Origin: an uncultured Spirochaetia bacterium
GTDB lineage: Bacteria; Desulfobacterota_D; UBA1144; Nemesobacterales; UBA2774
Assembly: GCA_964586675.1 (NCBI GenBank)
Contig: CAZPHQ010000004.1
Span: 3,031-67,030 of the forward strand
Length of the DNA: 64,000 nt
Direction: 5' to 3'
The notes beneath the pieces were generated by a model. It was not told where the DNA came from and ran no database searches. It worked only from the letters and a program-made list of their open reading frames with translations. The translations under genes and the position numbers were made by a program. Of this stretch, positions 2,399 through 61,691 are shown one piece after another; positions within the stretch are counted from its first letter, which is position 1; each line of letters starts with the position of its first letter.

Positions 2399-3112
2399 TT
2401 ACGACTTCCCGTGCACCGGCACGAAGGCCCCGCTGACGGCGCGGGCATCCTCCGAGGACAAAAACGCTATCACCTTCGCGATATCCGACGGCGGCACCCA
2501 TTTCGAATAATCACTTTCAGGCATCGCCGCCCTGTTACCGGGCGTGTCAATGGTTCCGGGGACGACTGCGTTCACGGTGATGTCGTGCTCGCGGAGCTCT
2601 TCGGCCATCGACTGCGTCAGGTTAAGAACGCCGGCCTTCGATGCCCCGTATGCGCTCATGCGAGCAGAGCCCTTCAGCGCGGGCCGGGAGCCGACGTTGA
2701 TTATCCTCCCCCAGCCGTTCATTATCATCACCGGAATAACTGCCTTCGAGCAGAGAAAAGCTGTCTTGAGATTTACGCTCATCATCGCGTCCCAGTCGTC
2801 CTCGGCAGTAGCCCCTATCGGACCCATTGCGAATCCGCCGACGACGTTAACCAGGATGTCGATGCGTGAAAATGTTTCCTCGGTTTTGGATACGAGCTTC
2901 GCGACGTGGGTCTCCCGTGTGACGTCGGCCTTTCCGAATACCACTCTCTCGCCGAAAGACTGCCGTAGCGCAAACGAGGCGTCGAGCTCTTCCTCGGTAA
3001 GATAGGTGCACATGACATTCGCGCCGCGCGTAAGGAGCTCGAACGTAACGGCCCTTCCGAGAGCGCCCGCTCCTCCCGTCACTATCGCAGTTCTGCCCCC
3101 AAGCTGGTTCAT
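2399..3112 (-). CDS. Short-chain dehydrogenase/reductase (SDR) family oxidoreductase
   Basis: Rossmann TGGAGALG motif directly after the start, then Y/K catalytic region (SAYGASKAG). The ATG at 3112 has GGAG 7 nt upstream, and the longer start at 3160 adds an unconserved extension. Confidence 0.8.
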   Translation of the reverse strand: MNQLGGRTAIVTGGAGALGRAVTFELLTRGANVMCTYLTEEELDASFALRQSFGERVVFGKADVTRETHVAKLVSKTEETFSRIDILVNVVGGFAMGPIGATAEDDWDAMMSVNLKTAFLCSKAVIPVMIMNGWGRIINVGSRPALKGSARMSAYGASKAGVLNLTQSMAEELREHDITVNAVVPGTIDTPGNRAAMPESDYSKWVPPSDIAKVIAFLSSEDARAVSGAFVPVHGKS

Positions 3113-3738: not shown

Positions 3739-6585
3739 ATGTCAGAGGCCAAGAAGGTAAATTACAAGGACACGCTGAACCTGCCGCGTACGGACTTCCC
3801 GATGAAGGCCAACCTCGCCCAGAAGGAGCCCGAATTTCAGAAGCGCTGGAAGAAGATCGACCTCTACCAGAGAATCCGTGAGAAATCGGAGGGTAGGGAG
3901 AAGTTCGTTTTTCACGACGGCCCGCCCTACGCCAACGGACCGATACACCTCGGGCATCTCCTGAACAAGGTGCTGAAGGATATTGTCGTAAGGTCGCGCA
4001 CCATGCTCGGCTACGACGTCCACTTCGTCCCCGGCTGGGACTGCCACGGCCTCCCGATAGAGCACAAGGTCTTAAAGGAGCTTGGCGAGGAGGCGAAGGA
4101 CCTTTCACGCCTCAAGATAAGGTATAAGTGCCAGTCGTATGCCGAGAAGTATGTGAAGCTCCAGGCCGGGCAGATGCAGAGCCTCGGCACGACGGGGGAT
4201 TACGAGAATCCGTATCTTACTATGGTGCCTGGGTACGAAGCGGGCGTGCTCGAAGTTTTCGCAGAGCTTTTAAAGCGCGGCCTCATATACAGGGACTTGA
4301 AGCCTGTCCACTGGTCTATAGAAAACAGGACGGCGCTCGCCGACGCGGAGCTGGAATATTACGAAAGAGTAGACAGGAGCGTTTACGTTCTATTCGAAGT
4401 TGAAAATACGGACGCGCTGCCTCCGGGGCTTAATGTCCCGGAGGGCGGAAAGCCTTCGCTTCTGATTTGGACGACGACCCCGTGGACGCTTCCGGCGAAC
4501 CTCGCGGTCGCCATATCGCCTGACGGCGACTACGGGCTTTATAAAGTTACGAAGAACGGAAAGGAAATATTGGCGATACTCGTCGACAATCTCGCCGAGA
4601 CGGTATTCAAGAAGGCCGGGGCGGAAGAGTACGTGAAACTCGGAGGCGCTAAAGGCAGGGACATAGCGGCCGCCGGGGTGAAGTACGTGCACCCCTTCGC
4701 CGGCCGGACGAGCAGGGTTGTCACCGCCGATTACGTACTCTTCGACGAGGGCACGGGGCTTGTACATACCGCCCCCGGGCACGGCGTCGAGGACTACCAG
4801 ACCGGGCTCAGGGAAGGGCTCGACATATACTGCCCCGTTCTCGGCGACGGCACGTTCGACGACACGGTGCCGGAATGGCTCCGGGGCATGGATGTCTGGA
4901 AGGCGAACGGCGTAATCGCCGGGCGTCTCGCGGAATCGGGACACCTCTTCCACGAAGAGGAATACCCGCACAGCTACCCCCACGACTGGCGGAGCAAGTC
5001 GCCGACGATATTCCGCGCGACTGAGCAGTGGTTCATCGCCGTCGATAAGAAAATGGACGAGTTCGGAGGCTCTCTCAGGGACCTCGCGCTCAAATACTGC
5101 GAGTCTGGAATAGACTTCTACCCCGAGTGGGGGCGGAACAGGCTCCGGGGCATGCTCGAATCGAGGCCCGACTGGTGCATAAGCCGCCAGCGCGCGTGGG
5201 GCCTCCCGATACCGGCGTTTGTGAACGATAAGGGCGAGTGCCTTCTCACGCCCGCGTCCGTGAACGTCATAATCGAAAAAATAAGGCAGAAGGGCTCAAA
5301 CCTCTGGTTCCAGGGGGAGGACGAGGAAATACTCGAAGGGTACGACCCGCTCTCCGACCCCGACGCACCGGCATGGGCGAAGGAAGAGGGCGCGCTCGGG
5401 AAGCTCACGCGCGGGATGGACATATTCGACGTTTGGTTCGAGTCGGGCTCGTCGTGGCATGCCGTCCTCGAGCAGAGAGGTATTGGATTCCCGGCGGACC
5501 TTTACCTCGAAGGCTCGGACCAGCACAGAGGATGGTTCCAGCTATCCCTCCTGCCTGCGCTCGGCACGCGCGGAAGGCCGCCCTTCAAAGCGCTCCTCAC
5601 GCACGGCTTCATGGTCGACGCGCAGGGGAGAAAGATGAGCAAGTCCGGCGGGAACGCGCTCGAAGTCGATGAGCTCTTAAAGCAGCACGGAGCCGACATA
5701 TGCAGGTGGTGGGTGAGCTCGCTCAAGTATACGAACGATATAAAAGTCGACTGGGAATTCTTCCGCGTCGCCGGGGACGAGTATAGAAAAGTCAGGAACA
5801 CGATAAGGTTTCTCCTCGGCAACATAAGCGACTTCAACCCCGAGACGGATGCCGTCGGATTCGGAGAGGAGGACAGATATTCCCTCGACGCGTGGGCAAT
5901 GACGGAGCTCGCGAAATTCATACGCGAGACGGTCGAGGCCTACAGCGTCTTCCAGTACAAGCTGGCGAACGAAATAATATTCAGATTCTGCTATGACACA
6001 CTGAGCGCCGTTTACCTCGCAGCCACGAAGGACAGGCTCTACTGCGAGAGGTCTGACAGCCGGAAAAGGCGGAGGTCGCAGACGGCGATGTACCGCATCA
6101 CGGACGCCCTCGTAAGGCTCCTCGCCCCTATACTCGTTCACACGGCCGACGAGGCTTATCTCTCGCTGAAGGGACTCCCCCCGGATTCAGAAGAGAGCGT
6201 TCACCTGACGGGTCTGCCCGAGTTCATTGACGTTCCGTCGGACCAGGCATGGGACGAAGTTCTGGAGCTCAGGGGAAGGGTGCTGAAGGCGCTCGAAGAG
6301 GCCAAGGATGCGCAGGGAATATCCAATCCCCTGGACGCGGGCGTCGAGGTAACTGTTGACGGAGGGCTTTACAAAAAGCTGAAGCCGTTCGAGCCGGAGC
6401 TGCCCGACATCGCGGGCGTGAGCAGGTTCGAGATCCTCGAAGGGAAAGAGGTTCGAATAAAAATCGTCGACCTTTCGGGAGAGCCGCGCTGCGAGCGCTC
6501 GTGGAAGAGGGACGGGACAGTTAAGGAGCGCCCGGGCGGCGGACTACTCTCCGACAGGGACGCCGAAGCGCTGGGCGTGGATTAA
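3739..6585 (+). CDS. ileS: Isoleucine--tRNA ligase
   Basis: Class I aaRS HIGH motif (PYANGPIHLGH) and KMSKS motif. Size ~948 aa with the IleS-typical editing region (GTGLVHTAPGHG) and C-terminal Cys-containing tail. Confidence 0.95.
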   Translation: MSEAKKVNYKDTLNLPRTDFPMKANLAQKEPEFQKRWKKIDLYQRIREKSEGREKFVFHDGPPYANGPIHLGHLLNKVLKDIVVRSRTMLGYDVHFVPGWDCHGLPIEHKVLKELGEEAKDLSRLKIRYKCQSYAEKYVKLQAGQMQSLGTTGDYENPYLTMVPGYEAGVLEVFAELLKRGLIYRDLKPVHWSIENRTALADAELEYYERVDRSVYVLFEVENTDALPPGLNVPEGGKPSLLIWTTTPWTLPANLAVAISPDGDYGLYKVTKNGKEILAILVDNLAETVFKKAGAEEYVKLGGAKGRDIAAAGVKYVHPFAGRTSRVVTADYVLFDEGTGLVHTAPGHGVEDYQTGLREGLDIYCPVLGDGTFDDTVPEWLRGMDVWKANGVIAGRLAESGHLFHEEEYPHSYPHDWRSKSPTIFRATEQWFIAVDKKMDEFGGSLRDLALKYCESGIDFYPEWGRNRLRGMLESRPDWCISRQRAWGLPIPAFVNDKGECLLTPASVNVIIEKIRQKGSNLWFQGEDEEILEGYDPLSDPDAPAWAKEEGALGKLTRGMDIFDVWFESGSSWHAVLEQRGIGFPADLYLEGSDQHRGWFQLSLLPALGTRGRPPFKALLTHGFMVDAQGRKMSKSGGNALEVDELLKQHGADICRWWVSSLKYTNDIKVDWEFFRVAGDEYRKVRNTIRFLLGNISDFNPETDAVGFGEEDRYSLDAWAMTELAKFIRETVEAYSVFQYKLANEIIFRFCYDTLSAVYLAATKDRLYCERSDSRKRRRSQTAMYRITDALVRLLAPILVHTADEAYLSLKGLPPDSEESVHLTGLPEFIDVPSDQAWDEVLELRGRVLKALEEAKDAQGISNPLDAGVEVTVDGGLYKKLKPFEPELPDIAGVSRFEILEGKEVRIKIVDLSGEPRCERSWKRDGTVKERPGGGLLSDRDAEALGVD

Positions 6586-6618
6586 TTTAGACAGCAATCC
6601 GAACCCGCGCTGTCCTCG

Positions 6619-6960
6619 TTATCCCGGGGGCCACTCCATCTGCCGTCCGCCGAGGATGTGAAGGTGGATGTGATACACGGCCTGCCCGCCATCCTTGTTC
6701 GTGTTTATCACGACGCGATAGCCCGAATCCGAGAAGCCCTGATCCCTGGCTATCTCGGCCGCCTTGACCAGCAGATGCCCGAGGAGCGGCGCGTCCTCTT
6801 CAGTTGCTTCCGCGAGTGATTTTATCTCCTTCTTCGGGACGAGAAGTATGTGCTGCGGGGCCTTCGGGTCGATGTCGCGAAAGGAGATGCAGAGCTCGTC
6901 CTCGTAGACTATGACTGCCGGGATTTCCCTATTTATTATCTTCGTAAAAATCGAGCTCAT
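6619..6960 (-). CDS. HIT-family (histidine triad) nucleotide hydrolase
   Basis: HxHxHxx motif (VYHIHLHILGG) at the C-terminus; ~113 aa. Confidence 0.85.
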   Translation of the reverse strand: MSSIFTKIINREIPAVIVYEDELCISFRDIDPKAPQHILLVPKKEIKSLAEATEEDAPLLGHLLVKAAEIARDQGFSDSGYRVVINTNKDGGQAVYHIHLHILGGRQMEWPPG

Positions 6961-7025
6961 CTTGCACTCCTGAACAGTTTCTTGTCTCGCAGGTATCCAA
7001 GCATAACACGGCGGAAAGACACGGG

Positions 7026-8090
7026 CTATAAGTTTATGCCGGGCCAGCCCTCTATCGGATCAGTCGAACGGACGACGTGCATTCCCGCGGCCTCGAATTC
7101 GCCGAATGCCGCATCGGCCTCGTCGGTATAGTCGATCACGTTCGGAACGACGACGGGCGACGTGCAGTCTTCGAGGAGATATATCTTCCTGACGAGCGTG
7201 GCGTCTCCCTCGCGCGCCTTCTTGAGAAGATCGGCGATGGTCCACGCGACGCAGTGGCTTTTCGCCTGCCCGGCGATTACGACGGCGTCGAAGTCCGCAA
7301 GCTTCCCGTAAATCGCCTCCGACGCCATTGGTTTCTGAAATAGCGACTCTGTTCTCTGTTTCAGCGGCTTCCCGTCGGGCCCCGTCGATACTTCCGGCGC
7401 GAGGACGGAGTAGTGCTCCGTCAGCGGATGGTCGCCCTTGACGTGTATGTCGGGCTGGCTGTGCCGTGCTATCGAGTGAAAGAAAACGGCCTCCTCGACG
7501 CACGAGGCGAGGGCGTGCCCGATGCCGCCCAGCATTGCGTGGTAGGGCCACACGGTTAGCTCGTACTTCCCGGATTTCCGGAGCTCCTTCACGTAATGAA
7601 GGAGATGTTTTTCGATGTAGTCGTCGGCGTATGCAAGGTTACTGCTCAGCATCGTGTTGAATTTCCATTTACCGCTTTCTATGTCTTCGACCGATATGTT
7701 CGTGTAGGGGGCCGGGTGCTCGCCTGTGGCGTTAACGAAAAATATCCCGTGGAATATCTGCATCGCCTGGTGGGTGTCCATCGTCGGCGCGATCTCGGTT
7801 ATTGCCCCGAGGTTCCTGTATATGAACTCGCAGAGCCTCCGGTTGTCGTCCACTGCCCCCGTGCCCGAGCGGCCTCTGACGAAAAGCTCGAACCCGGGAA
7901 TGCAGAACGTATTCTGCGCGTCCACTATCACGAGCGAGACCCGGGGCGCGTCACCCGAGGCGGGGGCGAGGCCGTGCACGTCGGCCCATTCCCGTGCCGA
8001 CCGGGCAAGCGCTTCGTACTCGACCCGCCAGACCTCTCCCGCCTTTTCGGGTTTGTAATGTGAGGGCAGGGGCAGTTTCAGTTTGTTCAT
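7026..8090 (-). CDS. Isochorismatase-family cysteine hydrolase with N-terminal extension
   Basis: [11 protein letters not shown] (catalytic Asp region) and [16 protein letters not shown] (catalytic Cys region) are arranged as in the isochorismatase/nicotinamidase fold. Confidence 0.6.
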
Positions 8091-18770: not shown

Positions 18771-19473
18771 CAATTTGAAGACTTACCCGGAAGATCCGAC
18801 TACAAAGGCTCGTCCATAAACCGCCCAGCAGAAGGCTGCCGACTCGATCCGACCTCCACGAAACCCCGAAGACGCATCGCTCCCGGCGGCGTAGACTTAA
18901 CGTCCGATAATATATATTATGTTAACTCATAAATCTTACATTTATAAGGCCTGTTTTTCTGCTTAAAATCGCCCATTGTCATCATCCCTATTCGGCTAAG
19001 CCAGCGGGCAAGCAGACTTATTGCACTATAGGCGAGCACTCGAATCTAAATTCACCCGCGCCGTCGAGGCTGGACAAACCGGCGATATTACTGTTGTCCA
19101 ATATTTCCTCGATTGATAAAACAGCATCGGCGTTGGGGAATCCATTGAAGCCGGCTACGCCGCATTCTACGTTGAAGCAGTCTATAACTGCGCAGTTGAA
19201 AAATTCGACTCTCCCTTGCAGAACGAGCGGACTGGTGGAAAGATCGCCTTCATAGAAATTGCAGCCGTAAGGATTACAGATTTCCAGAGAACAGACTGCG
19301 CTGCATTATTTACTATATCATATTAAACAACTTATTAGTCAATTATCATTACTGCTTCCACTATCCTTATCTACCGCTCGCGCAAACGGAGTGCGCTTCG
19401 CCTACGGCTTGAAAAATCCCTCGCAATCATTATATTAAATCGAAAACCGAATACATGTTTTGAGGTCAACGGT

Positions 19474-19833: not shown

Positions 19834-19923
19834 ATAGAGCGGAGGTCGGCCCTACCCCCCCTGCGCCAGAACTTAAAGTAAATAATTTAAAGTTTATTTG
19901 TCTGATTTTTATAGAATGTTCTC

Positions 19924-20715
19924 ATGGACTTACAAATAAAAAATAAAGTAGCGATTGTGGCTGCGGCGAGTAAGGGATTGGGCAGGGCAACAGCCCTTGG
20001 GCTTGCCCGTGAAGGCGCGAGACTCACGATTTGCGCGCGCGGCGCAGAAGAGCTCGAGAAAACGGCCCGTGAAATCAGGGAAGAAAGCTCCGCTGAAGTC
20101 CTCGCCATAGCGGCCGACGTATCCAGAACAGAGGACATCCGGAATGTAGTCTCGGAGACCCTCGAAAAATACTCGACCGTCGACATCCTCGTAAACAACG
20201 CGGGCGGGCCACCCGTCGGCGGCTTCCTCGATTTCTCTCTCGACAACTGGCAAAAGGCAGTCGAGCTCAACCTCTTCAGCACCATAACCTTTTGCCGCGA
20301 GGTGATCCCCCACATGAGGAAAAACAACTGGGGCCGCATCGTGAATATCACGTCCGTTGCCGTAAAGGAGCCGATAGACGGCCTCATACTCTCGAATACA
20401 GTCCGCGCGGGAGTTACAGGGCTCGCCAAGTCGCTCTCGAAGGAATTCGGACGCTACAATATAACTGTCAACAACATCTGCCCCGGAAGGATACTCACAG
20501 ACAGGATAATTCACCTGGCCTCGATGCGCGCAGAGAAGGAAGGGAAAACGGTAGACGAGGCGCTCGCCTCCATGGGCAGCGACATTCCCGTTGGAAGGAT
20601 CGGAAGGCCCGAGGAGCTCGCGAACCTAGCTGTCTTTCTCGCATCCGAGCGCGCGAGCTATATCACTGGAACGAGCATCCAGGTAGACGGCGGGCTCGTC
20701 AAGGGACTTTTCTGA
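19924..20715 (+). CDS. SDR-family oxidoreductase (FabG-like 3-oxoacyl reductase)
   Basis: KVAIVAAASKGLGRA Rossmann motif, NNAG, and the catalytic S...Y...K arrangement. Confidence 0.8.
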   Translation: MDLQIKNKVAIVAAASKGLGRATALGLAREGARLTICARGAEELEKTAREIREESSAEVLAIAADVSRTEDIRNVVSETLEKYSTVDILVNNAGGPPVGGFLDFSLDNWQKAVELNLFSTITFCREVIPHMRKNNWGRIVNITSVAVKEPIDGLILSNTVRAGVTGLAKSLSKEFGRYNITVNNICPGRILTDRIIHLASMRAEKEGKTVDEALASMGSDIPVGRIGRPEELANLAVFLASERASYITGTSIQVDGGLVKGLF

Positions 20716-51232: not shown

Positions 51233-52705
51233 CTAGAGGCCGAGTATGTAGTCGATTATCGTTCTCACGCCGAACCCGGTGCCGCCCTTGGGATAGAACT
51301 CCCCTTCCCTCTCCGAGTACGCCGGCCCGGCCAGGTCTATGTGGGCCCACGGGGTGTCCGCGACGAAATGCTCGAGGAACATCGCGGCCGTTATCGCCCC
51401 GCCCCACCTGCTGCCGGCGTTCTTTATGTCGGCGACGTCGCTCTTTATATCGGCCCGGAGCTCGTCGTCGAGCGGCAGCTCCCATATCTTCTCGCCCGCT
51501 TCCCCGGCGGCCTTGAGAATCCTGCCGACGAGCTTGGGATCGTTCCCCATGACTCCGGCCGTATAGAGCCCGAGGCCCACGATACACGCCCCCGTCAGGG
51601 TCGCCATGTCGACGATTTCCGCGGCCTTTAATTCGACAGCGTAGGAGAGCGCGTCCGAGAGGATCACGCGCCCCTCGGCGTCGGTGTTTATAACCTCTAT
51701 GGTTTTCCCGTTGTATGCCCTGATGACGTCGTCTGGCTTATAGGCCTTGGGGCCGGTCATGTTCTCGCAGGAGGCTATGAGGCCGTGCACCCTGACGCGC
51801 GGTTTAAGCGCCGGAAGTGCTTTCATCACTCCGAGCACCGCGGCGGCGCCCGCCATGTCCATCTTCATTGTGCGCATGCTGTCGGCCGGCTTTATGCAGA
51901 GGCCGCCCGAATCGAACGTTATGCCCTTTCCGACTATGGCGACTGTTTTTGCCGCCCTCTTTTCGGGCTCGTATGTCAGGTGTATGAACCTCGGCTCCTG
52001 GTCGCTCCCGGCCGTAACGGCCTGTATGCCGCGCATGCCGCGCCTGTCTATCTCGTCCGGGCCGAATATCTCGCACCTGAGGCCGCCCTCTTCGGCGATG
52101 CCATTGGCAGTCTCCGCGAGCTTGGTGGGCGTCATGTATACAGGCGGCTCGTTGACCAGGTCGCGGACGAGATTGGTGGAATCGCCCACAACCTTTGCAA
52201 GCCCGGTTTCGGCGGCGAGACGCTTTTCGTTGAGGCCTTCCAAAGACAGGATTATCTCCGACAGCCTGCTCCCGCCGTTATCGCTGGATTTGTATTTGTT
52301 GAATTCGTACGAGCCGAGGTAGATGCCTTCAGCGAGCGCCCGGACGTATCCCGGCTTCTTCGAAAACTCGGAGCCGAAGGCAACGGAACCGGAGGATCTC
52401 CGGAGTTTCTTCGCAGATACGATACCGGCCTTTCTTAAGGCCACGGAGCCCAGGCCGCGCTTATCGCCGAGCCCGACGACGAGTACGCGCTTTACACCTA
52501 TGCGTCCGAACGTCGAGCCCAGGAGTATGGCCTTTCCTGCCTCCCCGTCGAATTTTTCCGATTCGACTAGGGCCTTGAGCTCGCCTCCGAGAGCCTTGTC
52601 GACGTCTTTCAGATCGCCCGATATTCCCTCGCCCTTAAACGCCGCCAAAACAAGCGCATCCGCTTTTACTTTCCTTTCGTCTTCCCTGCCAATTATAAAT
52701 TTCAA
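51233..52705 (-). CDS. pepA: Leucyl aminopeptidase (M17 family)
   Basis: NTDAEGRVILSDAL signature, plus the catalytic VGKGITFDSGG and K..D...DM.GAA regions. Confidence 0.9.
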   Translation of the reverse strand: MKFIIGREDERKVKADALVLAAFKGEGISGDLKDVDKALGGELKALVESEKFDGEAGKAILLGSTFGRIGVKRVLVVGLGDKRGLGSVALRKAGIVSAKKLRRSSGSVAFGSEFSKKPGYVRALAEGIYLGSYEFNKYKSSDNGGSRLSEIILSLEGLNEKRLAAETGLAKVVGDSTNLVRDLVNEPPVYMTPTKLAETANGIAEEGGLRCEIFGPDEIDRRGMRGIQAVTAGSDQEPRFIHLTYEPEKRAAKTVAIVGKGITFDSGGLCIKPADSMRTMKMDMAGAAAVLGVMKALPALKPRVRVHGLIASCENMTGPKAYKPDDVIRAYNGKTIEVINTDAEGRVILSDALSYAVELKAAEIVDMATLTGACIVGLGLYTAGVMGNDPKLVGRILKAAGEAGEKIWELPLDDELRADIKSDVADIKNAGSRWGGAITAAMFLEHFVADTPWAHIDLAGPAYSEREGEFYPKGGTGFGVRTIIDYILGL

Positions 52706-52916
52706 TTGTTATATGCTCCTCTGGTCTTTATATTATTTAATCGTAGAACGGATTATCTAATCTTAGCATACAGGCGCGCAATTGTAAGCACGCGGGGCGA
52801 ACGGGGATTTGCCGAGCGGCCCTTTTTCCGGCGATGATGAGCTAAACCTGGATATGTCTATATACTATACAATTTATTTAATATAGTGGAATGAAAGTTT
52901 TACTGGCCCCGGCGGT

Positions 52917-52939
52917 CAGTATTAGGTAAATTAATACTG
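52917..52939. promoter_or_regulatory. Perfect 8-bp inverted repeat CAGTATTA-n7-TAATACTG, candidate ArsR-type operator ~40 bp upstream of arsR-like gene 1
   Basis: Read directly from the sequence: arms 52917-52924 and 52932-52939 are exact reverse complements. Located in an AT-rich promoter region before a GGAGG RBS. Confidence 0.35.
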
Positions 52940-52977
52940 AACATAAAATCTTTAAATTTAGTAAGGAGGTAATTATA

Positions 52978-53256
52978 ATGGGTTGCCCGTATAAAGCCAT
53001 AGCAGACGATACGAGAAGGAAGATCCTCGAGTTTTTAAGCGAGGGCGAAAGCGCAGCAGGAGATATCGCAAGCAAGTTCGATATATCCAAGCCCGCTATC
53101 TCGAACCATCTGAAGATTTTAAAGGAAGCCGATATTGTCAACGAGCGGAAGGTCAGACAAAACCGGCTTTATTCCTTAAACGGCGATATGATAAACAACA
53201 TGAAGTTCTTTCTCACATCGCTGACGGGGAAAGGCAGTCAGAATCTGAGGGCATAG
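52978..53256 (+). CDS. ArsR/SmtB-family winged-helix transcriptional regulator (paralogue 1)
   Basis: DDTRRKILEFL...GDIASKF.ISKPAISNHLKILKEADIV is the canonical ArsR HTH. No alpha-3 CxC metal site; Cys3 only. Confidence 0.8.
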   Translation: MGCPYKAIADDTRRKILEFLSEGESAAGDIASKFDISKPAISNHLKILKEADIVNERKVRQNRLYSLNGDMINNMKFFLTSLTGKGSQNLRA

Positions 53257-53330
53257 CGGCTTGGCGATCGACGCGTCGCACACGATGCATTCGGCGGGAC
53301 AGCTCTCAATCTAAAATTCAATCGACCCAG

Positions 53331-53363
53331 GGCCGTTTTCGGTCAGAGCACTCGGAAACGGCC
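53331..53363 (+). terminator. 11-bp stem hairpin (GGCCGTTTTCG ... CGGAAACGGCC, one G-U) ~75 bp after the arsR-1 stop and ~85 bp before the PKS start; possible terminator or attenuator
   Basis: Stem complementarity checked base by base; downstream TTCTATACTT is only moderately U-rich. Confidence 0.3.
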
Positions 53364-53448
53364 TTCTATACTTAAACCCCGAAGACGTGCGGCGCGCCGA
53401 CGAAGCAGCCGAACGGAACCGGCTCGATCAGGCCCGGAGACGCGTTAT

Positions 53449-54513
53449 ATGCCCGGTATAGTTTCAGCAGGCACCAATGACGCTCCGCATGCTTACCGGC
53501 AGACGGAGCTCAAGAGAATTGCGCGCGATCTCTTCTCAAAAAAGGGCCGCGACTTCAGAAGGCTCCTCGACGTCTTCGACAACTCGCTCATAGATTCGCG
53601 CCACTTCATTAATTCGCTCGGGTGGTTCGAGGCTCCTAAGAGCTTCAAGGAGAGGTCTATATCCTATGCCGAGAACGCAGCGTCGCTCTCGCTCCCGGCT
53701 ATAAAGTCCTGTATGGAAAGCGCCGGCGCCGATTACGGAGACTTCGATCATATTATCTTCGTGACGAGCACGGGCATCTCGGCGCCGTCGGCCGACGCTC
53801 TAATACTGAACGAGCTCGGGCTCGACAGGCACGTCAGGCGCACACCTATCTGGGGGCTCGGATGCGCGGGCGGCGCGGCCGGCATGAGCAGGGCCTACGA
53901 ATACGCAAGGGCGTTCCCCGAAAGCGCAGTCCTCCTCGTGGCCGTGGAGATGTGCAGCCTCGCCTTTCACGACGACGATTATTCGAAGAGTAACGTCGTG
54001 TCGCTCGCCCTCTTTTCAGATGGCGCAGCCGCCGTGCTCGTCGCCGGGGATAAGCACAGGCTCTTCGGGAAGTCGAAGGCGCGGATGACTCGGACCCTCT
54101 CGACGACCTGGCCCGATACGCTCGACGTGATGGGCTGGGAGATTGTGGACGACGGGCTCCGCGCGATATTCAGCAAGGACATACCGTCCATCGTCAAAAG
54201 CCGGATCAGGGAGAATATAGACGAGCTCCTGGGTCCGGAAAGACTCGACGCTGCCGACCTCCGGCACTTCGCCGTTCATCCCGGCGGCCCCAAGGTGCTG
54301 AGTGAATTCGAGGCGGCGATCGGGCTCGGAGAGGGAGCGTTCGAATATTCGAGGAAGGTGCTCCGCGAGCACGGAAACATGTCGTCCCCGACAGTCCTCT
54401 ACGTCCTCAAGGAGATACTCGAAGCCGAGGATTTTAATGAAAGCGATTACGGAATAATCTCCGCCCTCGGCCCCGGGTTCAGCTCGGAGCTCGTGCTGCT
54501 CGAATCCGCATGA
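53449..54513 (+). CDS. Type III polyketide synthase (chalcone/stilbene synthase superfamily; alkylresorcinol/alkylpyrone synthase-like)
   Basis: Catalytic Cys in GLGCAGG, His in FAVHPGGPKV, Asn in GNMSSPTVLYVL. ~354 aa, typical of bacterial type III PKS. Confidence 0.85.
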   Translation: MPGIVSAGTNDAPHAYRQTELKRIARDLFSKKGRDFRRLLDVFDNSLIDSRHFINSLGWFEAPKSFKERSISYAENAASLSLPAIKSCMESAGADYGDFDHIIFVTSTGISAPSADALILNELGLDRHVRRTPIWGLGCAGGAAGMSRAYEYARAFPESAVLLVAVEMCSLAFHDDDYSKSNVVSLALFSDGAAAVLVAGDKHRLFGKSKARMTRTLSTTWPDTLDVMGWEIVDDGLRAIFSKDIPSIVKSRIRENIDELLGPERLDAADLRHFAVHPGGPKVLSEFEAAIGLGEGAFEYSRKVLREHGNMSSPTVLYVLKEILEAEDFNESDYGIISALGPGFSSELVLLESA

Positions 54514-55025
54514 AGATATTCCTCATATTTCTGACACTGATAATCCTCCAGCGTTTGAGCGAGCTTCTGCTCGCAAAGAGGAACGAGAAGACCGTAAGGA
54601 GCGAGGGCGCTGTCGAGTACGACGCACCGGGTTACAAGGTTATAGTCCTTATGCATACCGCCTTTCTCGTATCCTTCGCGGCTGAATACTTTCTCCTCGG
54701 AAGGTCGCTCTCGCCCTACCGGCTTCCGCTCGTATGCGTCTTCGTGCTGGCGCAGCTGCTGAGATACTGGGCGATAAGGAGCCTCGGGAAATTCTGGAAT
54801 ACGAGGATACTGATCGTGCCCGGAGAGCGGCTCGTGACGACGGGTCCATACAAATACCTCAGGCATCCGAATTACGTTTCCGTCGTCATAGAAATCGCCG
54901 TCATTCCGCTCATCTTCTCGTGCTACATTACTGCGGCCGTTTTCACGGCGCTCAACATTCTCGCCCTTCGGAGAAGGATACGTATAGAGGAGAGCGCCCT
55001 TTCGAGCCTCCAGAGCACCCGATAA
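54510..55025 (+). CDS. Isoprenylcysteine carboxyl methyltransferase (ICMT)-family membrane methyltransferase, translationally coupled to the PKS
   Basis: LVTTGPYKYLRHPNYVSVVIE is the ICMT/PEMT SAM-binding signature; 4-5 TM helices; ATGA overlap with the PKS stop. Confidence 0.8.
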   Translation: MKIFLIFLTLIILQRLSELLLAKRNEKTVRSEGAVEYDAPGYKVIVLMHTAFLVSFAAEYFLLGRSLSPYRLPLVCVFVLAQLLRYWAIRSLGKFWNTRILIVPGERLVTTGPYKYLRHPNYVSVVIEIAVIPLIFSCYITAAVFTALNILALRRRIRIEESALSSLQSTR

Positions 55026-55555
55026 AACGTTCTTGGGCAATGTCGTGTCGAGACGCGGCCCGAGCCCCGAAACATTCACATTATCTATAAAAAATACCGC
55101 TCATATACGCGCCGTAAAAGATAAAAGGTATATATGTTATTGCTCCGATATAGGGGTGATTCAGAATGTAATTATAGTCCGGATATATGTTCTATGCTTT
55201 TCCGGCCGCTTTCCGGGCGATTTTTCCTTTAAGTTTTCGCGAAAACCTATACTTTACATTAGGTGGCACTTATTCTTTGATTACAGAGGGTTATTAAAAG
55301 GACCTCTTTTCCGTCTTTAAAGCCAAAACGGAAAAATATCCAGACATAAAGAATCGAAAAAACAGTTAATTACAATGTTTAAGTAATTTAATTGCATAAC
55401 GACAGTATATTACAGTGCATTTATAATGTATTTTATGACAGGATGCCAACCCCTAAAGCCTTTTATCAACTACTTTAAAGCCCGGGTTAAGGGTCTTCAA
55501 CCGTCAGTGCGCCCCTCGTCCGACGAAGCCCGGCAGGCGAGCCAAGGAAGATACA

Positions 55556-55575
55556 ATATATATATAATATATATA
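55556..55575. repeat. (AT)n-like low-complexity microsatellite inside an 800-bp AT-rich non-coding gap
   Basis: atatatatataatatatata read directly from the sequence. Confidence 0.5.
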
Positions 55576-55833
55576 AACCGGCCAATACATATATTTGTGC
55601 CCCCGGGTTTTTGGAAATATCAGGCCTTTGGATTGCCGGACCGCCGCCGGCTATCAACTCGTCGGGTATCGGCGCACAGGTCGCACTGCCTGTGAGCTTG
55701 GGACAGATGCCGGAATAAAGTCGCGCCCGGGCTCCGCGGACTCCGGTCCGTAAATTACCCCCGGAGCCGCACTTGAATACAAACTCGAAAATAATATAGA
55801 CTCTATCCTAGAACGGCTTTCGGGGAGGAACCT

Positions 55834-56277
55834 ATGCTGAGATATATATTTCAGACAAATGACGATGCGGCCGCGCTTATCGCAAGGCTCGCGCTCGGTA
55901 TTGTAATACTTCCTCACGGGCTTCAAAAGCTGCTCGGGATGTTCGGAGGGGCGGGCTTTACAGGAACCGTCGACTATTTCGTCAGCAGCGGAATACCTGC
56001 ATTCCTGGCTGTTCTGATAATCCTGGGCGAATCCTTCGGCGCGCTCGGGCTCATAATCGGTTTTCTAAGCCGTGTCGCCGCCCTCGGTATAAGCATCATA
56101 ATGCTGGGCGCGATAGTTACAGTGCATGTCAAGTTCGGCTTTTTTATGAACTGGGCGGGTACGCAGGCCGGAGAGGGTTTCGAGTTCCACATTTTAGCCA
56201 TAGGTCTCGCACTCGTCGTCCTCATCAAGGGCGGAGGACTATGGTCCGTAGACAGGGCCATAACAAAGTCGGCCTAG
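55834..56277 (+). CDS. DoxX-family membrane protein
   Basis: LARLALGIVILPHGLQKL and following TM helices are typical of DoxX. Confidence 0.8.
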   Translation: MLRYIFQTNDDAAALIARLALGIVILPHGLQKLLGMFGGAGFTGTVDYFVSSGIPAFLAVLIILGESFGALGLIIGFLSRVAALGISIIMLGAIVTVHVKFGFFMNWAGTQAGEGFEFHILAIGLALVVLIKGGGLWSVDRAITKSA

Positions 56278-56432
56278 CATGCAGCCATATAATTTTTCAG
56301 CGTAGACAAATTACTTCCGGTGGGCTGCACAAAGTGCCTTTAATCTTGATATTTAAGCTCAGTCGCATGTAGCAGCATATGCACCTAGTTCCCCGGGCTC
56401 ACTTGATAATTTGCTTTCCATCAGGCTTTAAT

Positions 56433-56448
56433 TTAGAATAATTTCTAA
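56433..56448. promoter_or_regulatory. Inverted repeat TTAGAA-TAAT-TTCTAA ~35 bp upstream of arsR-like gene 2, candidate operator
   Basis: Arms are exact reverse complements. AT-rich region, so chance occurrence is possible. Confidence 0.3.
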
Positions 56449-56483
56449 TTTACCTAATCCAGAATTACCAGGGGGATGTATAT

Positions 56484-56744
56484 ATGGGATGCAGCTTTAA
56501 AGCACTTAGTGACGAGCGCAGGCGCATGATCCTCTCCATACTCGGCGAGAACGATGCTTGCGCCGGCGATATAGCGCGCAAGTTTTCTATATCACAGCCT
56601 ACAGTTTCGAATCATTTGAAGATACTCAAGGAAGCAGGACTCATCACAGAGCAGAAGATCAGACAGAACAGGATTTATTCCCTTCACAAGCCCGGTATTC
56701 AAAATGTGATAGAGACCCTCAAAAGCATAGTCAAAGAATCTTAG
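56484..56744 (+). CDS. ArsR/SmtB-family transcriptional regulator (paralogue 2, ~60% identical to the one at 52978)
   Basis: DERRRMILSIL...GDIARKFSISQPTVSNHLKILKEAGLI; both paralogues start MGC..KA. Confidence 0.8.
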   Translation: MGCSFKALSDERRRMILSILGENDACAGDIARKFSISQPTVSNHLKILKEAGLITEQKIRQNRIYSLHKPGIQNVIETLKSIVKES

Positions 56745-56961
56745 AAACCTGTAAAGACTGCCTGAGGGCGTGAAGTAACCGAACGAATAGACGGCGAAAC
56801 TGCGTCAGCAGTTCATGCCGCTGTAGAGCTTTGTCCCCTGCTCGATCCTGCCGCACACACCGGAGATGACTTCGACGCCCCTGGCATGGACGGCGCTCTG
56901 TTTCTAAAGTCGCGCCTCTTGGGTTATACTGAATACTGCCTACAACCGCCGGGACAGAACC

Positions 56962-58131
56962 ATGATAGACAAAAACAGAATGACAGAACACGCGATGGAT
57001 CTCATCAGGATAGACAGCCTTTCCCGAATGGAAAAGGAGGTCGCGCTCAAGCTCGAAAGCGAGATGAAAGACCTCGGCGCCGAATGTTTTTACGACGAGG
57101 CATGGGAAAAGGTCGGCGGCAACGTCGGGAACCTTATCGTCAGAATGGAAGGTAGCGAGCCCGGCGCCCCTCCCCTCCTCCTCTCGGCGCACATGGACAC
57201 CGTCGGCCCGGGCGAAGGAATCAAGCCGCGGGTCGAGAACGGCATAATGAAGAGCGACGGCACCACCATCCTCGGAAGCGACGACAAGAGCGGCCTTGCC
57301 GTCATCGTAGAAGTCTTGCGGACGCTCAGGGAAAAGAACATCCGGCACGGCGACATAGAAGTCGCGTTCACGATTTGCGAAGAGGTCGGGCTCCTCGGGG
57401 CCAAGCACATAGACATCAAAAAATTCAGGGCGAAGCACGGAATAGTCCTCGACAGCAGCACACCGTCGAGGCTCGTGCTCAGGTGCCCTTCGGCCGCGAA
57501 AATGGAATTCACAGTGCACGGCCTCGAAGCCCACGCGGGCCTCTGCCCGGAGAACGGGATAAGCGCCGTGGAGATCGCGAGCCGCGCCATCGCCCAGATG
57601 AAGCTCGGAAGGATAGACGAGATCACGACGGCGAACATCGGCATAATCGAGGGCGGCCGGGCCACGAACATTGTTCCGAACCTGGTCCGCGTCGTCGGCG
57701 AGGCAAGAAGCCACAGCGAGGAGAAGCTCGATGCGCAGGTCGGCCACATGAGAGGCTGTTTTCACGACACGGTCTCCAAGTACGAGGTCACCCTTCACGA
57801 CGATCTTTCGATCGAAGGCGTCACGTATACGGCACGGCTCGACGAGAAAATAGAAAGAACCTACGACAGGATGGACGTCCCGCTCACATCGACCCCGGCC
57901 AGGCTCGTGACCGACGCGGTGAAGAACCTCGGCTATTCGATAAGCCCGCACACGAGCGGCGGCGGATGCGACGCGAACTATTTCAACAGGATGGGCGTCG
58001 AGTGCGTAAACCTCGGCACCGGTATGTACGAGCTCCACACGGTAAACGAATACCTGGTGCTCGAAGAGTTCTACAGGGCCGCCGAAATAGTGCTCGAAGC
58101 CGTGAGGCTCAACGCCGTGAACGGCGGCTGA
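56962..58131 (+). CDS. M20-family metallopeptidase (peptidase T / tripeptidase-like)
   Basis: LSAHMDTV (His/Asp metal ligands), GSDDKSG, and the TICEEVGLLGA Glu-Glu catalytic region. Confidence 0.75.
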   Translation: MIDKNRMTEHAMDLIRIDSLSRMEKEVALKLESEMKDLGAECFYDEAWEKVGGNVGNLIVRMEGSEPGAPPLLLSAHMDTVGPGEGIKPRVENGIMKSDGTTILGSDDKSGLAVIVEVLRTLREKNIRHGDIEVAFTICEEVGLLGAKHIDIKKFRAKHGIVLDSSTPSRLVLRCPSAAKMEFTVHGLEAHAGLCPENGISAVEIASRAIAQMKLGRIDEITTANIGIIEGGRATNIVPNLVRVVGEARSHSEEKLDAQVGHMRGCFHDTVSKYEVTLHDDLSIEGVTYTARLDEKIERTYDRMDVPLTSTPARLVTDAVKNLGYSISPHTSGGGCDANYFNRMGVECVNLGTGMYELHTVNEYLVLEEFYRAAEIVLEAVRLNAVNGG

Positions 58132-58172
58132 CTTCAGCGACATAAACTCCGTCCGGGCATCTCTAAGAAAAA

Positions 58173-61053: not shown

Positions 61054-61349
61054 TTGACCATCCTCCATTTCGGTTATTAACCGTATTCTATACACGAGGT
61101 ATAAGTATTTTTCATCTCGATGTCAAGGGATATTTTGCTATTTATCAAATGATATAAGGCTCTTGCCGCAGCTATTCAGGGTGCGGAGAGCCTACCCCCG
61201 GAAACCCCGATTTTCCCCGGGGCAGAGGCTGCCGATTTTTTCGCAATTCTTGGATTTGGCGGACGCGAATTTTATAATTCATTTCACATTCAGCGCCCCG
61301 CCCCGAAGAGATAATAAAAAGGGATTCCTGGGCAAGGAGCATACAGAGC

Positions 61350-61676
61350 ATGGCAACGGTTGCACTCCTCGTGCTTTCCAATATTTTTATGACCTTCGCA
61401 TGGTACGGGCACCTCAAATACACCAGCTACCCCCTGTGGACGGTCATCATCGTGAGCTGGCTCATAGCGCTTCCCGAATACTGTTTTCAGGTCCCAGCCA
61501 ACAGAATCGGCTACGGACAATTCTCGGGCGTAGAGCTGAAAACCATACAGGAGATAATCTCGCTGACCGTATTCTCGGTGTTCAGCGTGCTCTACCTTAA
61601 CGAGCAGTTCAGATGGAATTACCTTATAGGATTCGGATTCCTCGTCGTCGGGGCATTTTTCATATTCAAAAAATGA
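61350..61676 (+). CDS. Small DMT-superfamily-like membrane protein (DUF486-type)
   Basis: Three to four TM helices in 108 aa; FMTFAWYGHLK motif resembles half-size DMT/EamA units. Confidence 0.5.
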   Translation: MATVALLVLSNIFMTFAWYGHLKYTSYPLWTVIIVSWLIALPEYCFQVPANRIGYGQFSGVELKTIQEIISLTVFSVFSVLYLNEQFRWNYLIGFGFLVVGAFFIFKK

Positions 61677-61691
61677 AGCTATTCTGACGTT

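Follow-up and report, generated by a model that had tools for sequence, protein, structure and literature searches.

A predicted BpsA/BpsB-type phenolic-lipid operon at a conserved chromosomal site of Candidatus Dadabacteria, accompanied by doxX and SdpR-like arsR genes

The window analysed here, a 64-kb stretch of contig CAZPHQ010000004.1 with 56% GC, carries a cassette of five genes encoding a type III polyketide synthase (PKS), an ICMT-family methyltransferase, a DoxX-family membrane protein and two ArsR-type regulators, and the interval examined was 52706-56961. All five open reading frames (ORFs) were found on the plus strand where a first-pass annotation, made from the letters, had placed them, with the doxX gene in front of the second arsR paralogue. 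The scores of all five products against their Pfam families exceed the curated cut-offs. The cassette and its immediate flanks are composed as follows.

51233-52705, minus strand: M17 leucyl aminopeptidase gene, left flank of the cassette (Pfam)
52978-53256, plus strand: arsR1, 92-aa ArsR-fold winged-helix regulator, SdpR-like (Pfam HTH_5/HTH_20)
53449-54513, plus strand: PKS gene, BpsA-like alkylpyrone/alkylresorcinol synthase of type III, 354 aa (Pfam Chal_sti_synt_N and Chal_sti_synt_C)
54510-55025, plus strand: ICMT gene, BpsB-like membrane methyltransferase of the ICMT family, 171 aa (Pfam ICMT)
55834-56277, plus strand: doxX, DoxX-family membrane protein with four transmembrane segments, 147 aa (Pfam DoxX)
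56484-56744, plus strand: arsR2, 86-aa paralogue of arsR1, SdpR-like (HTH_5/ArsR Pfam match)
56962-58131: M20 peptidase gene, right flank of the cassette (Pfam)

Further out from the two peptidase genes lie S49, CbiX and HAD genes, also recognised by Pfam.

The PKS scored 75.8 and 77.6 bits with the N- and C-terminal Chal_sti_synt models (cut-off 27). The complete catalytic triad read in the first pass was confirmed: Cys139, His277 and Asn310, in the contexts GLGCxGG, HPGG and GNMSS, were invariant in an alignment of 17 sequences. The nearest solved structures are those of M. tuberculosis Pks11 (an alkylpyrone synthase, E = 4e-57), CylI and THNS. Close homologues are named 'alkylresorcinol/alkylpyrone synthase' in their source records, and homologues from Bacillales, which also have an ICMT gene downstream, are 43-49% identical to the PKS of the window. 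Thr108, Cys169 and Phe173, assigned by offset to tunnel positions 144, 205 and 209 of Pks18, are conserved and would match the BpsA pattern (PMC7064976). The invariant Trp230 would be the equivalent of ArsB Trp281, a determinant of 'resorcinol' cyclisation. Since DquA carries the determinant Trp yet yields only pyrones (PMC9827899), the product prediction stops at alkylpyrones and/or alkylresorcinols.

The methyltransferase obtained a Pfam ICMT score of 101 bits and could be aligned with the solved eukaryotic ICMT 5v7p over a range that takes in both the RHPxY motif and the EE motif at the C-terminus; it is strongly hydrophobic, with at least three hydrophobic segments. The stop codon of the PKS gene and the start codon of the ICMT gene overlap by 4 bp in ATGA (54510-54513), as expected for the translational coupling that had been proposed. 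The two genes had also been described as the enzyme pairing used for methylated alkylresorcinol/alkylpyrone lipids, such as in the Srs and Ars systems. At the family level this description holds, and the likeness to Srs and Ars does not: the closest systems are BpsA/BpsB, and the PKS-ICMT pair is, judging from its sequence, a BpsA/BpsB-type two-gene phenolic-lipid operon.

In B. subtilis BpsA/BpsB and Sporomusaceae DquA/DquB, as in the window, a type III PKS gene is immediately followed by the gene of an ICMT-family membrane methyltransferase. This highly conserved pair produces long-chain alkylpyrones and alkylresorcinols, O-methylated by BpsB (PMC9827899). The Thr/Cys/Phe tunnel pattern and the Trp at the cyclisation position, both placed by offset, would be further points of likeness to BpsA/BpsB (PMC7064976, PMC9827899), and the products expected of the window pair would likewise be long-chain alkylpyrones, alkylresorcinols and their methyl ethers. 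Unlike the Bps and Dqu pairs, the one in the window belongs to a non-sporulating candidate-phylum host and shows the ATGA stop/start overlap; unlike the bps and dqu operons as described, it is fixed beside doxX and SdpR-like arsR genes. SrsABC of S. griseus and ArsABCD of A. vinelandii are also phenolic-lipid systems based on type III PKSs, and Srs, too, includes a methyltransferase. The Srs system contains the SrsC-type flavoprotein hydroxylase, and in the Ars system two type III PKSs are fed by the type I fatty-acid synthases ArsA and ArsD. No gene for an SrsC-type flavoprotein hydroxylase was found between 52706 and 56961, and no ArsA/ArsD-like large synthase genes were found in or beside the cassette, which has a single PKS; by gene content it is therefore neither an Srs nor an Ars system. 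Phenolic lipids of the Srs/Ars type have been linked to properties of the membrane and the cell envelope (PMC9827899). A small conserved cluster of a type III PKS together with a methyltransferase from an uncultivated lineage is also represented by CepA/CepB of the 'Entotheonella' sponge symbionts, which yields alkylpyrones as well as alkylresorcinols autoxidising to quinols and quinones (PMC7064976). Unlike the ICMT of the window, CepB is a soluble class I S-adenosylmethionine-dependent methyltransferase, and no DoxX or ArsR genes are reported for Cep.

The identical PKS protein is encoded by 17 metagenome contigs, in which gene order and flanks are those of the window, and the source names of close homologues are Candidatus Dadabacteria or Thermodesulfobacteriota metagenome-assembled genomes (MAGs). 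Genome mining has also pointed to type III PKS clusters in Dadabacteria MAGs from sponges (PMC12795557). A scan of a genome collection gave 80 loci, belonging to Dadabacteria, Ignavibacteria, Kryptoniota, Latescibacterota, Acidobacteriota and many Bacillales; tblastn with the window proteins located, in 79 of them, an ICMT gene in the same order, its distance downstream from the start of the PKS gene being about 1.06-1.16 kb.

The order S49-M17-arsR1-PKS-ICMT-doxX-arsR2-M20-CbiX-HAD recurs in relatives with a PKS 59-91% identical to that of the window, and the S49/M17 and M20/CbiX/HAD flanks are shared by relatives in which this identity is only 56-65%. PKS identity closely followed M17 identity in 14 loci (r = 0.98), which is a correlation of identities and not a formal tree. 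At three loci of more remote Dadabacteria (L013, L015 and L016) with a PKS 51-54% identical, the order is S49-M17-PKS-ICMT, with neither arsR nor doxX and with a different downstream gene. Because these deeper relatives carry the pair next to M17, the sequences indicate that PKS-ICMT is ancestral at this site and that arsR1, doxX and arsR2 mark a subclade. The occurrence of the pair at the same position in relatives lacking the arsR genes, named in the first-pass annotation as an observation that would speak against its view of the cassette as an acquired island, was thus encountered in part. The syntenic neighbourhood extends over Dadabacteria loci of 32-56% GC (L007-L016, L087, L088, L090-L136).

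A census covered 44 metagenome loci whose ArsR1 falls into the tight clade (at least 68% identity). It showed arsR1 directly followed by the PKS gene in 34 of the 36 M17-adjacent loci with enough flank, and the ICMT gene followed by doxX in 22/22 loci that extend far enough. The right side of the locus varies and may consist of doxX-arsR2, doxX-SDR-arsR2, doxX-SDR or doxX alone; arsR2 is absent from L087, L110, L121, L123 and L135. PKS, ICMT and DoxX are jointly absent from L088 and from L132/L133, where arsR1 and an arsR2-like gene stay between M17 and M20. PKS-ICMT-doxX behaves as a unit, since the three genes are lost together, with arsR1 as a near-constant neighbour and arsR2 as an optional one. 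In L088 (7001-10355) an ABC/UPF0014 fragment, an SDR gene and a 122-aa ORF stand in place of PKS-ICMT-DoxX; the interval in L132 is 6001-7824. Relatives of ArsR1 outside Dadabacteria were considered as PKS-linked and rejected, the matches being 44% identical, on contigs of 64-69% GC and with no PKS, ICMT or DoxX gene nearby. Weak ArsR matches near the Bacillales PKS loci lie 2-8 kb off and mostly on the opposite strand. The exact five-gene arrangement, which had not been recognised as a described system in the first pass, is apparently undescribed; rather than a system of its own, it represents a variant of the synteny specific to this clade.

The base composition of the cassette had led to the suggestion of horizontal acquisition. 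The spacers 52706-52977, 55026-55833 and 56278-56483 are indeed AT-rich, with 37.9%, 44.2% and 39.3% GC. The surrounding housekeeping genes have 58-60% GC and not about 62% as claimed, and the low GC of the spacers is not special: the mean intergenic GC is 47.6% in the other 27 gaps of the window versus 45.9% in the five cassette gaps, and several gaps outside the cassette drop to 30-40%. The GC content at third codon positions (GC3) of the PKS (0.75) and ICMT (0.70) genes is that of the host, in which it ranges from about 0.61 to 0.80 and is typically 0.72. Landmarks of mobile DNA were not found: there are no tRNA genes in the whole window, no Rfam families at gathering score across the window or at E <= 1 over 52000-57500, no direct repeats of at least 10 bp flanking the cassette, no integrase among the ten cassette and flanking genes scanned with Pfam, the neighbours of the cassette being peptidase genes, and no second copy of the cassette spacers, as a repeated or mobile element would give, elsewhere in the window. 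Host-like GC3, missing landmarks, shared flanks and a divergence that tracks that of M17 all speak against horizontal acquisition, and the sequence evidence identifies the cassette as a vertically inherited chromosomal locus and not as a horizontally acquired island. AT-rich intergenic DNA is the norm in the host genome; the coding DNA of this lineage drifted GC-rich, and the spacers are ordinary intergenic and regulatory DNA, not a foreign mark. Truly unusual, besides a 13-mer common to the upstream regions of both arsR genes, is the non-coding share of the cassette, 40% of 52706-56961 versus about 11% window-wide. The window lineage is GC-enriched, and its regulatory spacers and small arsR genes remain comparatively AT-rich. 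Two other long gaps of the window, 18771-19473 (703 bp) and 61096-61691 (596 bp), have 46-48% GC and no tRNA or Rfam match.

ArsR1 and ArsR2 are, as annotated, ArsR-type paralogues encoded on the same strand; their protein identity is 54%, in place of the approximately 60% first estimated. HTH_5 matched both proteins with 59-61 bits (cut-off 22) and NF033788 with 74 and 80 bits (cut-off 55). The best NCBIfam family was the SdpR autorepressor NF033789, with 91.1 and 90.0 bits, below its cut-off of 100. The nearest solved structure is SrnR, 7p6f. Neither ArsR1 nor ArsR2 has any of the recognised ligand sets for metals or metalloids (alpha3 CxC, alpha3N, alpha5 His/Asp/Glu), and the C-terminal helix of neither protein contains a His. 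The sole Cys of ArsR1 is Cys3, in an invariant N-terminal Met-Gly-Cys; Cys3 of ArsR2 is kept in 7/8 orthologues and its Cys26 is lineage-specific. Like SdpR of the B. subtilis sdpRI system, the two regulators are small, free of a metal site, preceded by a presumed autoregulatory operator and encoded beside a membrane protein gene (PMC2910880). Unlike SdpR, they score under the 100-bit cut-off and have PKS and DoxX genes as neighbours with no SdpI homologue; unlike sdpRI, the arsR genes appear monocistronic and not co-operonic with a membrane protein gene.

Residues 1-67 of ArsR1 are almost invariant across the clade, and its overall identity is 79-98% in relatives whose PKS identity is 56-91%. 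Between the window and L090 the nucleotide identity is 95% for arsR1, 94% for arsR2 and 89% for the M17-arsR1 spacer, compared with 84-89% for the enzyme and flanking peptidase genes. This suggests that an unusually strong constraint, which may operate on the nucleotides themselves, acts on the arsR genes and the M17-arsR1 spacer. ArsR1-family paralogues, 68-78% identical, occur at other sites in L089 (same MAG as L011), L125, L127, L134 and L136; one of them adjoins RND efflux genes and a PAS/GAF sensor kinase gene, and the family is expanded in the lineage.

The elements recognised around the arsR genes are listed below.

52706-52977, plus strand: M17-arsR1 spacer, 37.9% GC, containing the conserved motif ATTAGGTAAATTAATAC, an inverted repeat, a 13-mer and the ribosome-binding site AAGGAGG
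52916-52940: perfect inverted repeat before arsR1, TCAGTATTA-N7-TAATACTGA, with 9-bp arms at 52916-52924 and 52932-52940
53329-53365, plus strand: hairpin after arsR1, homologue of an intrinsic terminator, fold of -20.8 kcal/mol, z = -4.3
56278-56483, plus strand: doxX-arsR2 spacer, 39% GC, containing a promoter-like site, a short inverted repeat and the 13-mer on the minus strand
56411-56439: putative promoter-like site of arsR2, TTGCTT-N17-TAGAAT, assigned by reading
56433-56448: inverted repeat before arsR2, TTAGAA-TAAT-TTCTAA, with 6-bp arms

Each arsR gene had been said to be preceded by its own perfect inverted repeat. The repeat of arsR1 is perfect and mildly unusual (P = 0.025 in dinucleotide shuffles), its outer arms not being kept in L091 or L092; that of arsR2 is at chance level (P = 0.45) and was rejected as a significant feature. 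In the 64 kb there are just two exact copies of the 13-mer ATTAGGTAAATTA, one before each arsR gene, at 52921-52933 on the plus strand and at 56446-56458 on the minus strand, and a shared k-mer of this length has a shuffle P of about 0.005. The arsR1-proximal motif persists as far as L092, L012 and L014. The copy at 56446-56458 falls about at the presumed transcription start of arsR2; the elements of the doxX-arsR2 spacer are conserved in L090 and L091, and in other, AT-rich relatives the arsR2 site is represented by related palindromes such as TAATTAGCTAATTA. With up to 4 mismatches allowed, the arsR1-PKS spacer gave no match to the 13-mer, and the ICMT-doxX spacer gave weak ones only (3-4 mismatches). 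Since an operator-like AT-rich motif lies at the promoter of each arsR gene, the two regulators most likely control themselves and each other. The gating of the PKS gene by ArsR repressors, as first proposed, is unproven because the motif is absent from the upstream regions of PKS and doxX. It is further weakened by the terminator after arsR1, by the dispensability of arsR2 and by the arsR genes outlasting PKS-ICMT-DoxX.

The hairpin 3' of arsR1 is present in every lineage, its pairing is kept despite sequence change, and in most relatives it is followed by a canonical T-run. In the window the U-tract is degenerate, and a terminator scan of the plus strand did not call the hairpin at 53329-53365. 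The terminator may be leaky in the GC-rich lineage of the window, as its sequence would allow.

The DoxX protein scored 75.4 bits with PF07681 (cut-off 23.6) and has four hydrophobic segments. It shares the Pfam DoxX domain and the four transmembrane segments with MhqP and CatD of B. subtilis, YqjF and YphA of E. coli and DoxX of M. tuberculosis. Unlike in the known DoxX systems, there are no SseA/SodA or dioxygenase partners at the cassette, and an adjacent SDR gene occurs in some relatives only. The DoxX family has been tied to the redox handling of quinones and thiols (PMC7189620, PMC10501769), and a role of the protein in lipid redox is plausible by analogy because alkylresorcinols autoxidise into quinols and quinones (PMC7064976). 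The following elements lie in front of doxX.

55026-55833: ICMT-doxX spacer, 808 bp, 44% GC, with a conserved block, two hairpins and a promoter-like site of doxX
55201-55219 and 55306-55336: terminator-like hairpins, flanking the conserved non-coding block
55773-55802: putative promoter-like site of doxX, TTGAAT-N18-TAGACT, hexamers assigned by reading

The promoter-like site is kept in relatives as TTGATT-N17-TAGAAT. About 500 bp of the spacer are approximately 80% conserved with close relatives, and a non-coding block at about 55212-55325, with a core of 75-86 bp (about 55212-55296), can be aligned with L012 and L092, whose PKS is 63-65% identical; unlike this block, the other spacers fail to align with these two loci. 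It always lies about 190-220 bp 3' of the ICMT stop codon and is not recognisable in the AT-rich clade, in which the ICMT-doxX spacer is short. Its invariant pieces (core 55218-55300) are TTTTTCYTTTAAGTTTT, a GTTTT-loop-AAAAC hairpin, YACATTAGG, TTGATTAC, GGTTA and CTTTAAA. Several assignments of this DNA were considered and dropped. A small protein encoded in the 808-bp spacer (95-codon ORF, 55033-55320) was rejected on account of a GC3 of 0.41 and a frameshift in L091, and no open frame of the spacer is shared by all six aligned sequences. A structured RNA was rejected with an RNAalifold consensus of only -4.2 kcal/mol, the block having no Rfam match in the search of 52000-57500 at E <= 1. 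A sigma-54 or sigma-70 promoter was dropped, no cross-lineage hexamer pair being visible by eye.

Taken together, the observations are explained with good confidence by a BpsA/BpsB-type operon that has been inherited vertically in Candidatus Dadabacteria and stands beside doxX and SdpR-like arsR genes. As suggested by its family, tunnel residues and Trp230, the PKS would extend a long-chain fatty acyl thioester starter with malonyl-CoA and cyclise the product to alkylpyrones and/or alkylresorcinols. By analogy with BpsB, the ICMT protein would O-methylate these products, giving membrane-resident methyl ethers of phenolic lipids. The doxX gene, with its own putative promoter, would have become fixed beside the operon in one Dadabacteria subclade, and its product may, speculatively, handle quinol and quinone forms of the lipids. 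The two putatively monocistronic, SdpR-like and metal-site-free regulators would accompany the operon, most likely regulating themselves and each other; any control of the PKS gene by ArsR1 might depend on transcription that passes the weakened terminator, or on a site that escaped recognition.

Several points weigh against this explanation. The tunnel and Trp230 positions were set by offset from the catalytic residues and not by structure-based alignment. The GC3 of arsR1 (0.60), doxX (0.61) and arsR2 (0.55) is in or just under the lower tail of the host and was tentatively attributed to small size and constraint, and an ancient acquisition of these three genes by the ancestor of the subclade is conceivable because deeper Dadabacteria lack them. 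Moreover, since synteny extends over the entire neighbourhood, the conserved adjacency of the genes says little here about whether they are functionally linked.

That the 'PKS' might be a FabH-like KAS III enzyme of fatty-acid synthesis is scarcely credible. Weak matches to ACP_syn_III Pfam domains and NCBIfam FabH models were obtained, and some NCBI homologues are named '3-oxoacyl-ACP synthase III C-terminal domain-containing protein'. Against this stand 76-78 bits with the two Chal_sti_synt domains versus about 25 bits with the ACP_syn_III domains, the best 60 solved-structure matches, all of them type III PKSs, the Cys-His-Asn triad in its characteristic contexts and a partner gene for a BpsB-like methyltransferase. 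The identity was rejected because the FabH-type models score 59-60 bits, far below their cut-offs of 249-292, so the grouping with KAS III enzymes that had been named as a possible failure of the annotation was not observed. The view first put forward, that of a phenolic-lipid cassette acquired horizontally as an island and both bracketed and gated by two ArsR repressors, could draw on the AT-rich spacers, on the 46-47% overall GC of both arsR genes in a window of 56%, on the position of these genes on either side of the cassette in the same orientation, on the almost constant place of arsR1 beside the PKS gene in the clade and on the poor U-tract of the terminator after arsR1, which makes read-through into PKS conceivable. 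The host-like GC3 of PKS and ICMT, the similar intergenic GC elsewhere in the window and the lack of tRNA genes in the window and of repeats flanking the cassette do not agree with it. Neither do the identical chromosomal position with divergence in step with the flanks (r = 0.98), the deeper relatives with PKS-ICMT next to M17 and no arsR, the dispensability of arsR2, and the operator motif not being found upstream of PKS or doxX. A recent transfer of the cassette is largely refuted by these findings, and the island with its gating repressors must be regarded as very improbable.

A more serious contender, which we nevertheless judge less likely than not, is that the arsR genes are unrelated neighbours, namely autoregulators expanded in the lineage, that doxX(-SDR)-arsR2 is an independent stress module, and that M17-M20 synteny accounts for the proximity of all these genes to PKS-ICMT. 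It would account for paralogues elsewhere in the same genomes, for example by RND efflux and PAS/GAF kinase genes, for the retention of arsR1 and arsR2 in L088 and L132 after the loss of PKS-ICMT-DoxX, for the arsR1 gene being, by its sequence, a separate transcription unit, for a common motif confined to the arsR promoters and for the variable right-hand side of the locus. It accords poorly with PKS following arsR1 in 34 of 36 loci and doxX following ICMT in 22 of 22, with the loss of PKS, ICMT and DoxX as a unit, and with arsR1 and its upstream spacer being the most conserved DNA of the locus. The opposite extension, a functional unit of arsR1-PKS-ICMT-doxX in which the lipids or their DoxX-handled quinol/quinone products feed back on the SdpR-like regulators, is considered rather unlikely. 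Such feedback might operate through thiol modification of the invariant Cys3, as in the quinone sensors QsrR and YodB, or through sequestration of the regulators by membrane proteins, as SdpI does with SdpR, and the conserved non-coding block at 55212-55325 might be part of the circuit. If true, lipid/quinone feedback would give bacterial phenolic-lipid synthesis a regulatory circuit of a kind not described before.

With the vertically inherited BpsA/BpsB-type operon as the preferred explanation, the biosynthetic part of the first-pass annotation is right at the family level, as far as sequence can tell, and concerns a kind of PKS-ICMT pair that is already known. The locus overturns nothing in current understanding. 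It places a widespread phenolic-lipid operon in Candidatus Dadabacteria, predicted as ancestral at a fixed chromosomal site, and for this reason phenolic membrane lipids are probably part of the core physiology of Dadabacteria and not an accessory trait. The recurrent doxX and SdpR-like arsR neighbours give a modest lead on a coupling of phenolic-lipid synthesis to membrane redox sensing. The locus also exemplifies how the AT-rich regulatory spacers of a GC-drifted genome can mimic a foreign island.

Some minor observations concern single relatives and the edges of the cassette. An SDR gene lies directly 3' of doxX in L008 (4003-4776), L010 (4912-5559) and L087 (10196-10912), and also in L110, L111, L114-L116, L129 and L135; it is absent from the window lineage, and its product may be a functional partner of DoxX. 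A decayed SDR gene in the cassette was rejected, as the L008 SDR, used as tblastn query, matched nothing but unrelated SDR genes (2474-3094 and 19918-20481). A 470-codon ORF on the minus strand of the window (56731-58143), antisense to the M20 peptidase gene and overlapping the 3' end of arsR2, was rejected as a gene and considered a shadow ORF (GC content of 0.77 at first codon positions, GC3 of 0.57). The tblastn matches to PKS/ICMT are split in L098, L112, L121, L123 and L128, where frameshifts, pseudogenes or assembly errors are possible. Between arsR2 and M20, L007 (9256-13830) has an insertion of 4.3 kb with two ORFs on the minus strand, 506 aa and 610 aa long; the longer one resembles, by eye, a thiamine-diphosphate enzyme.

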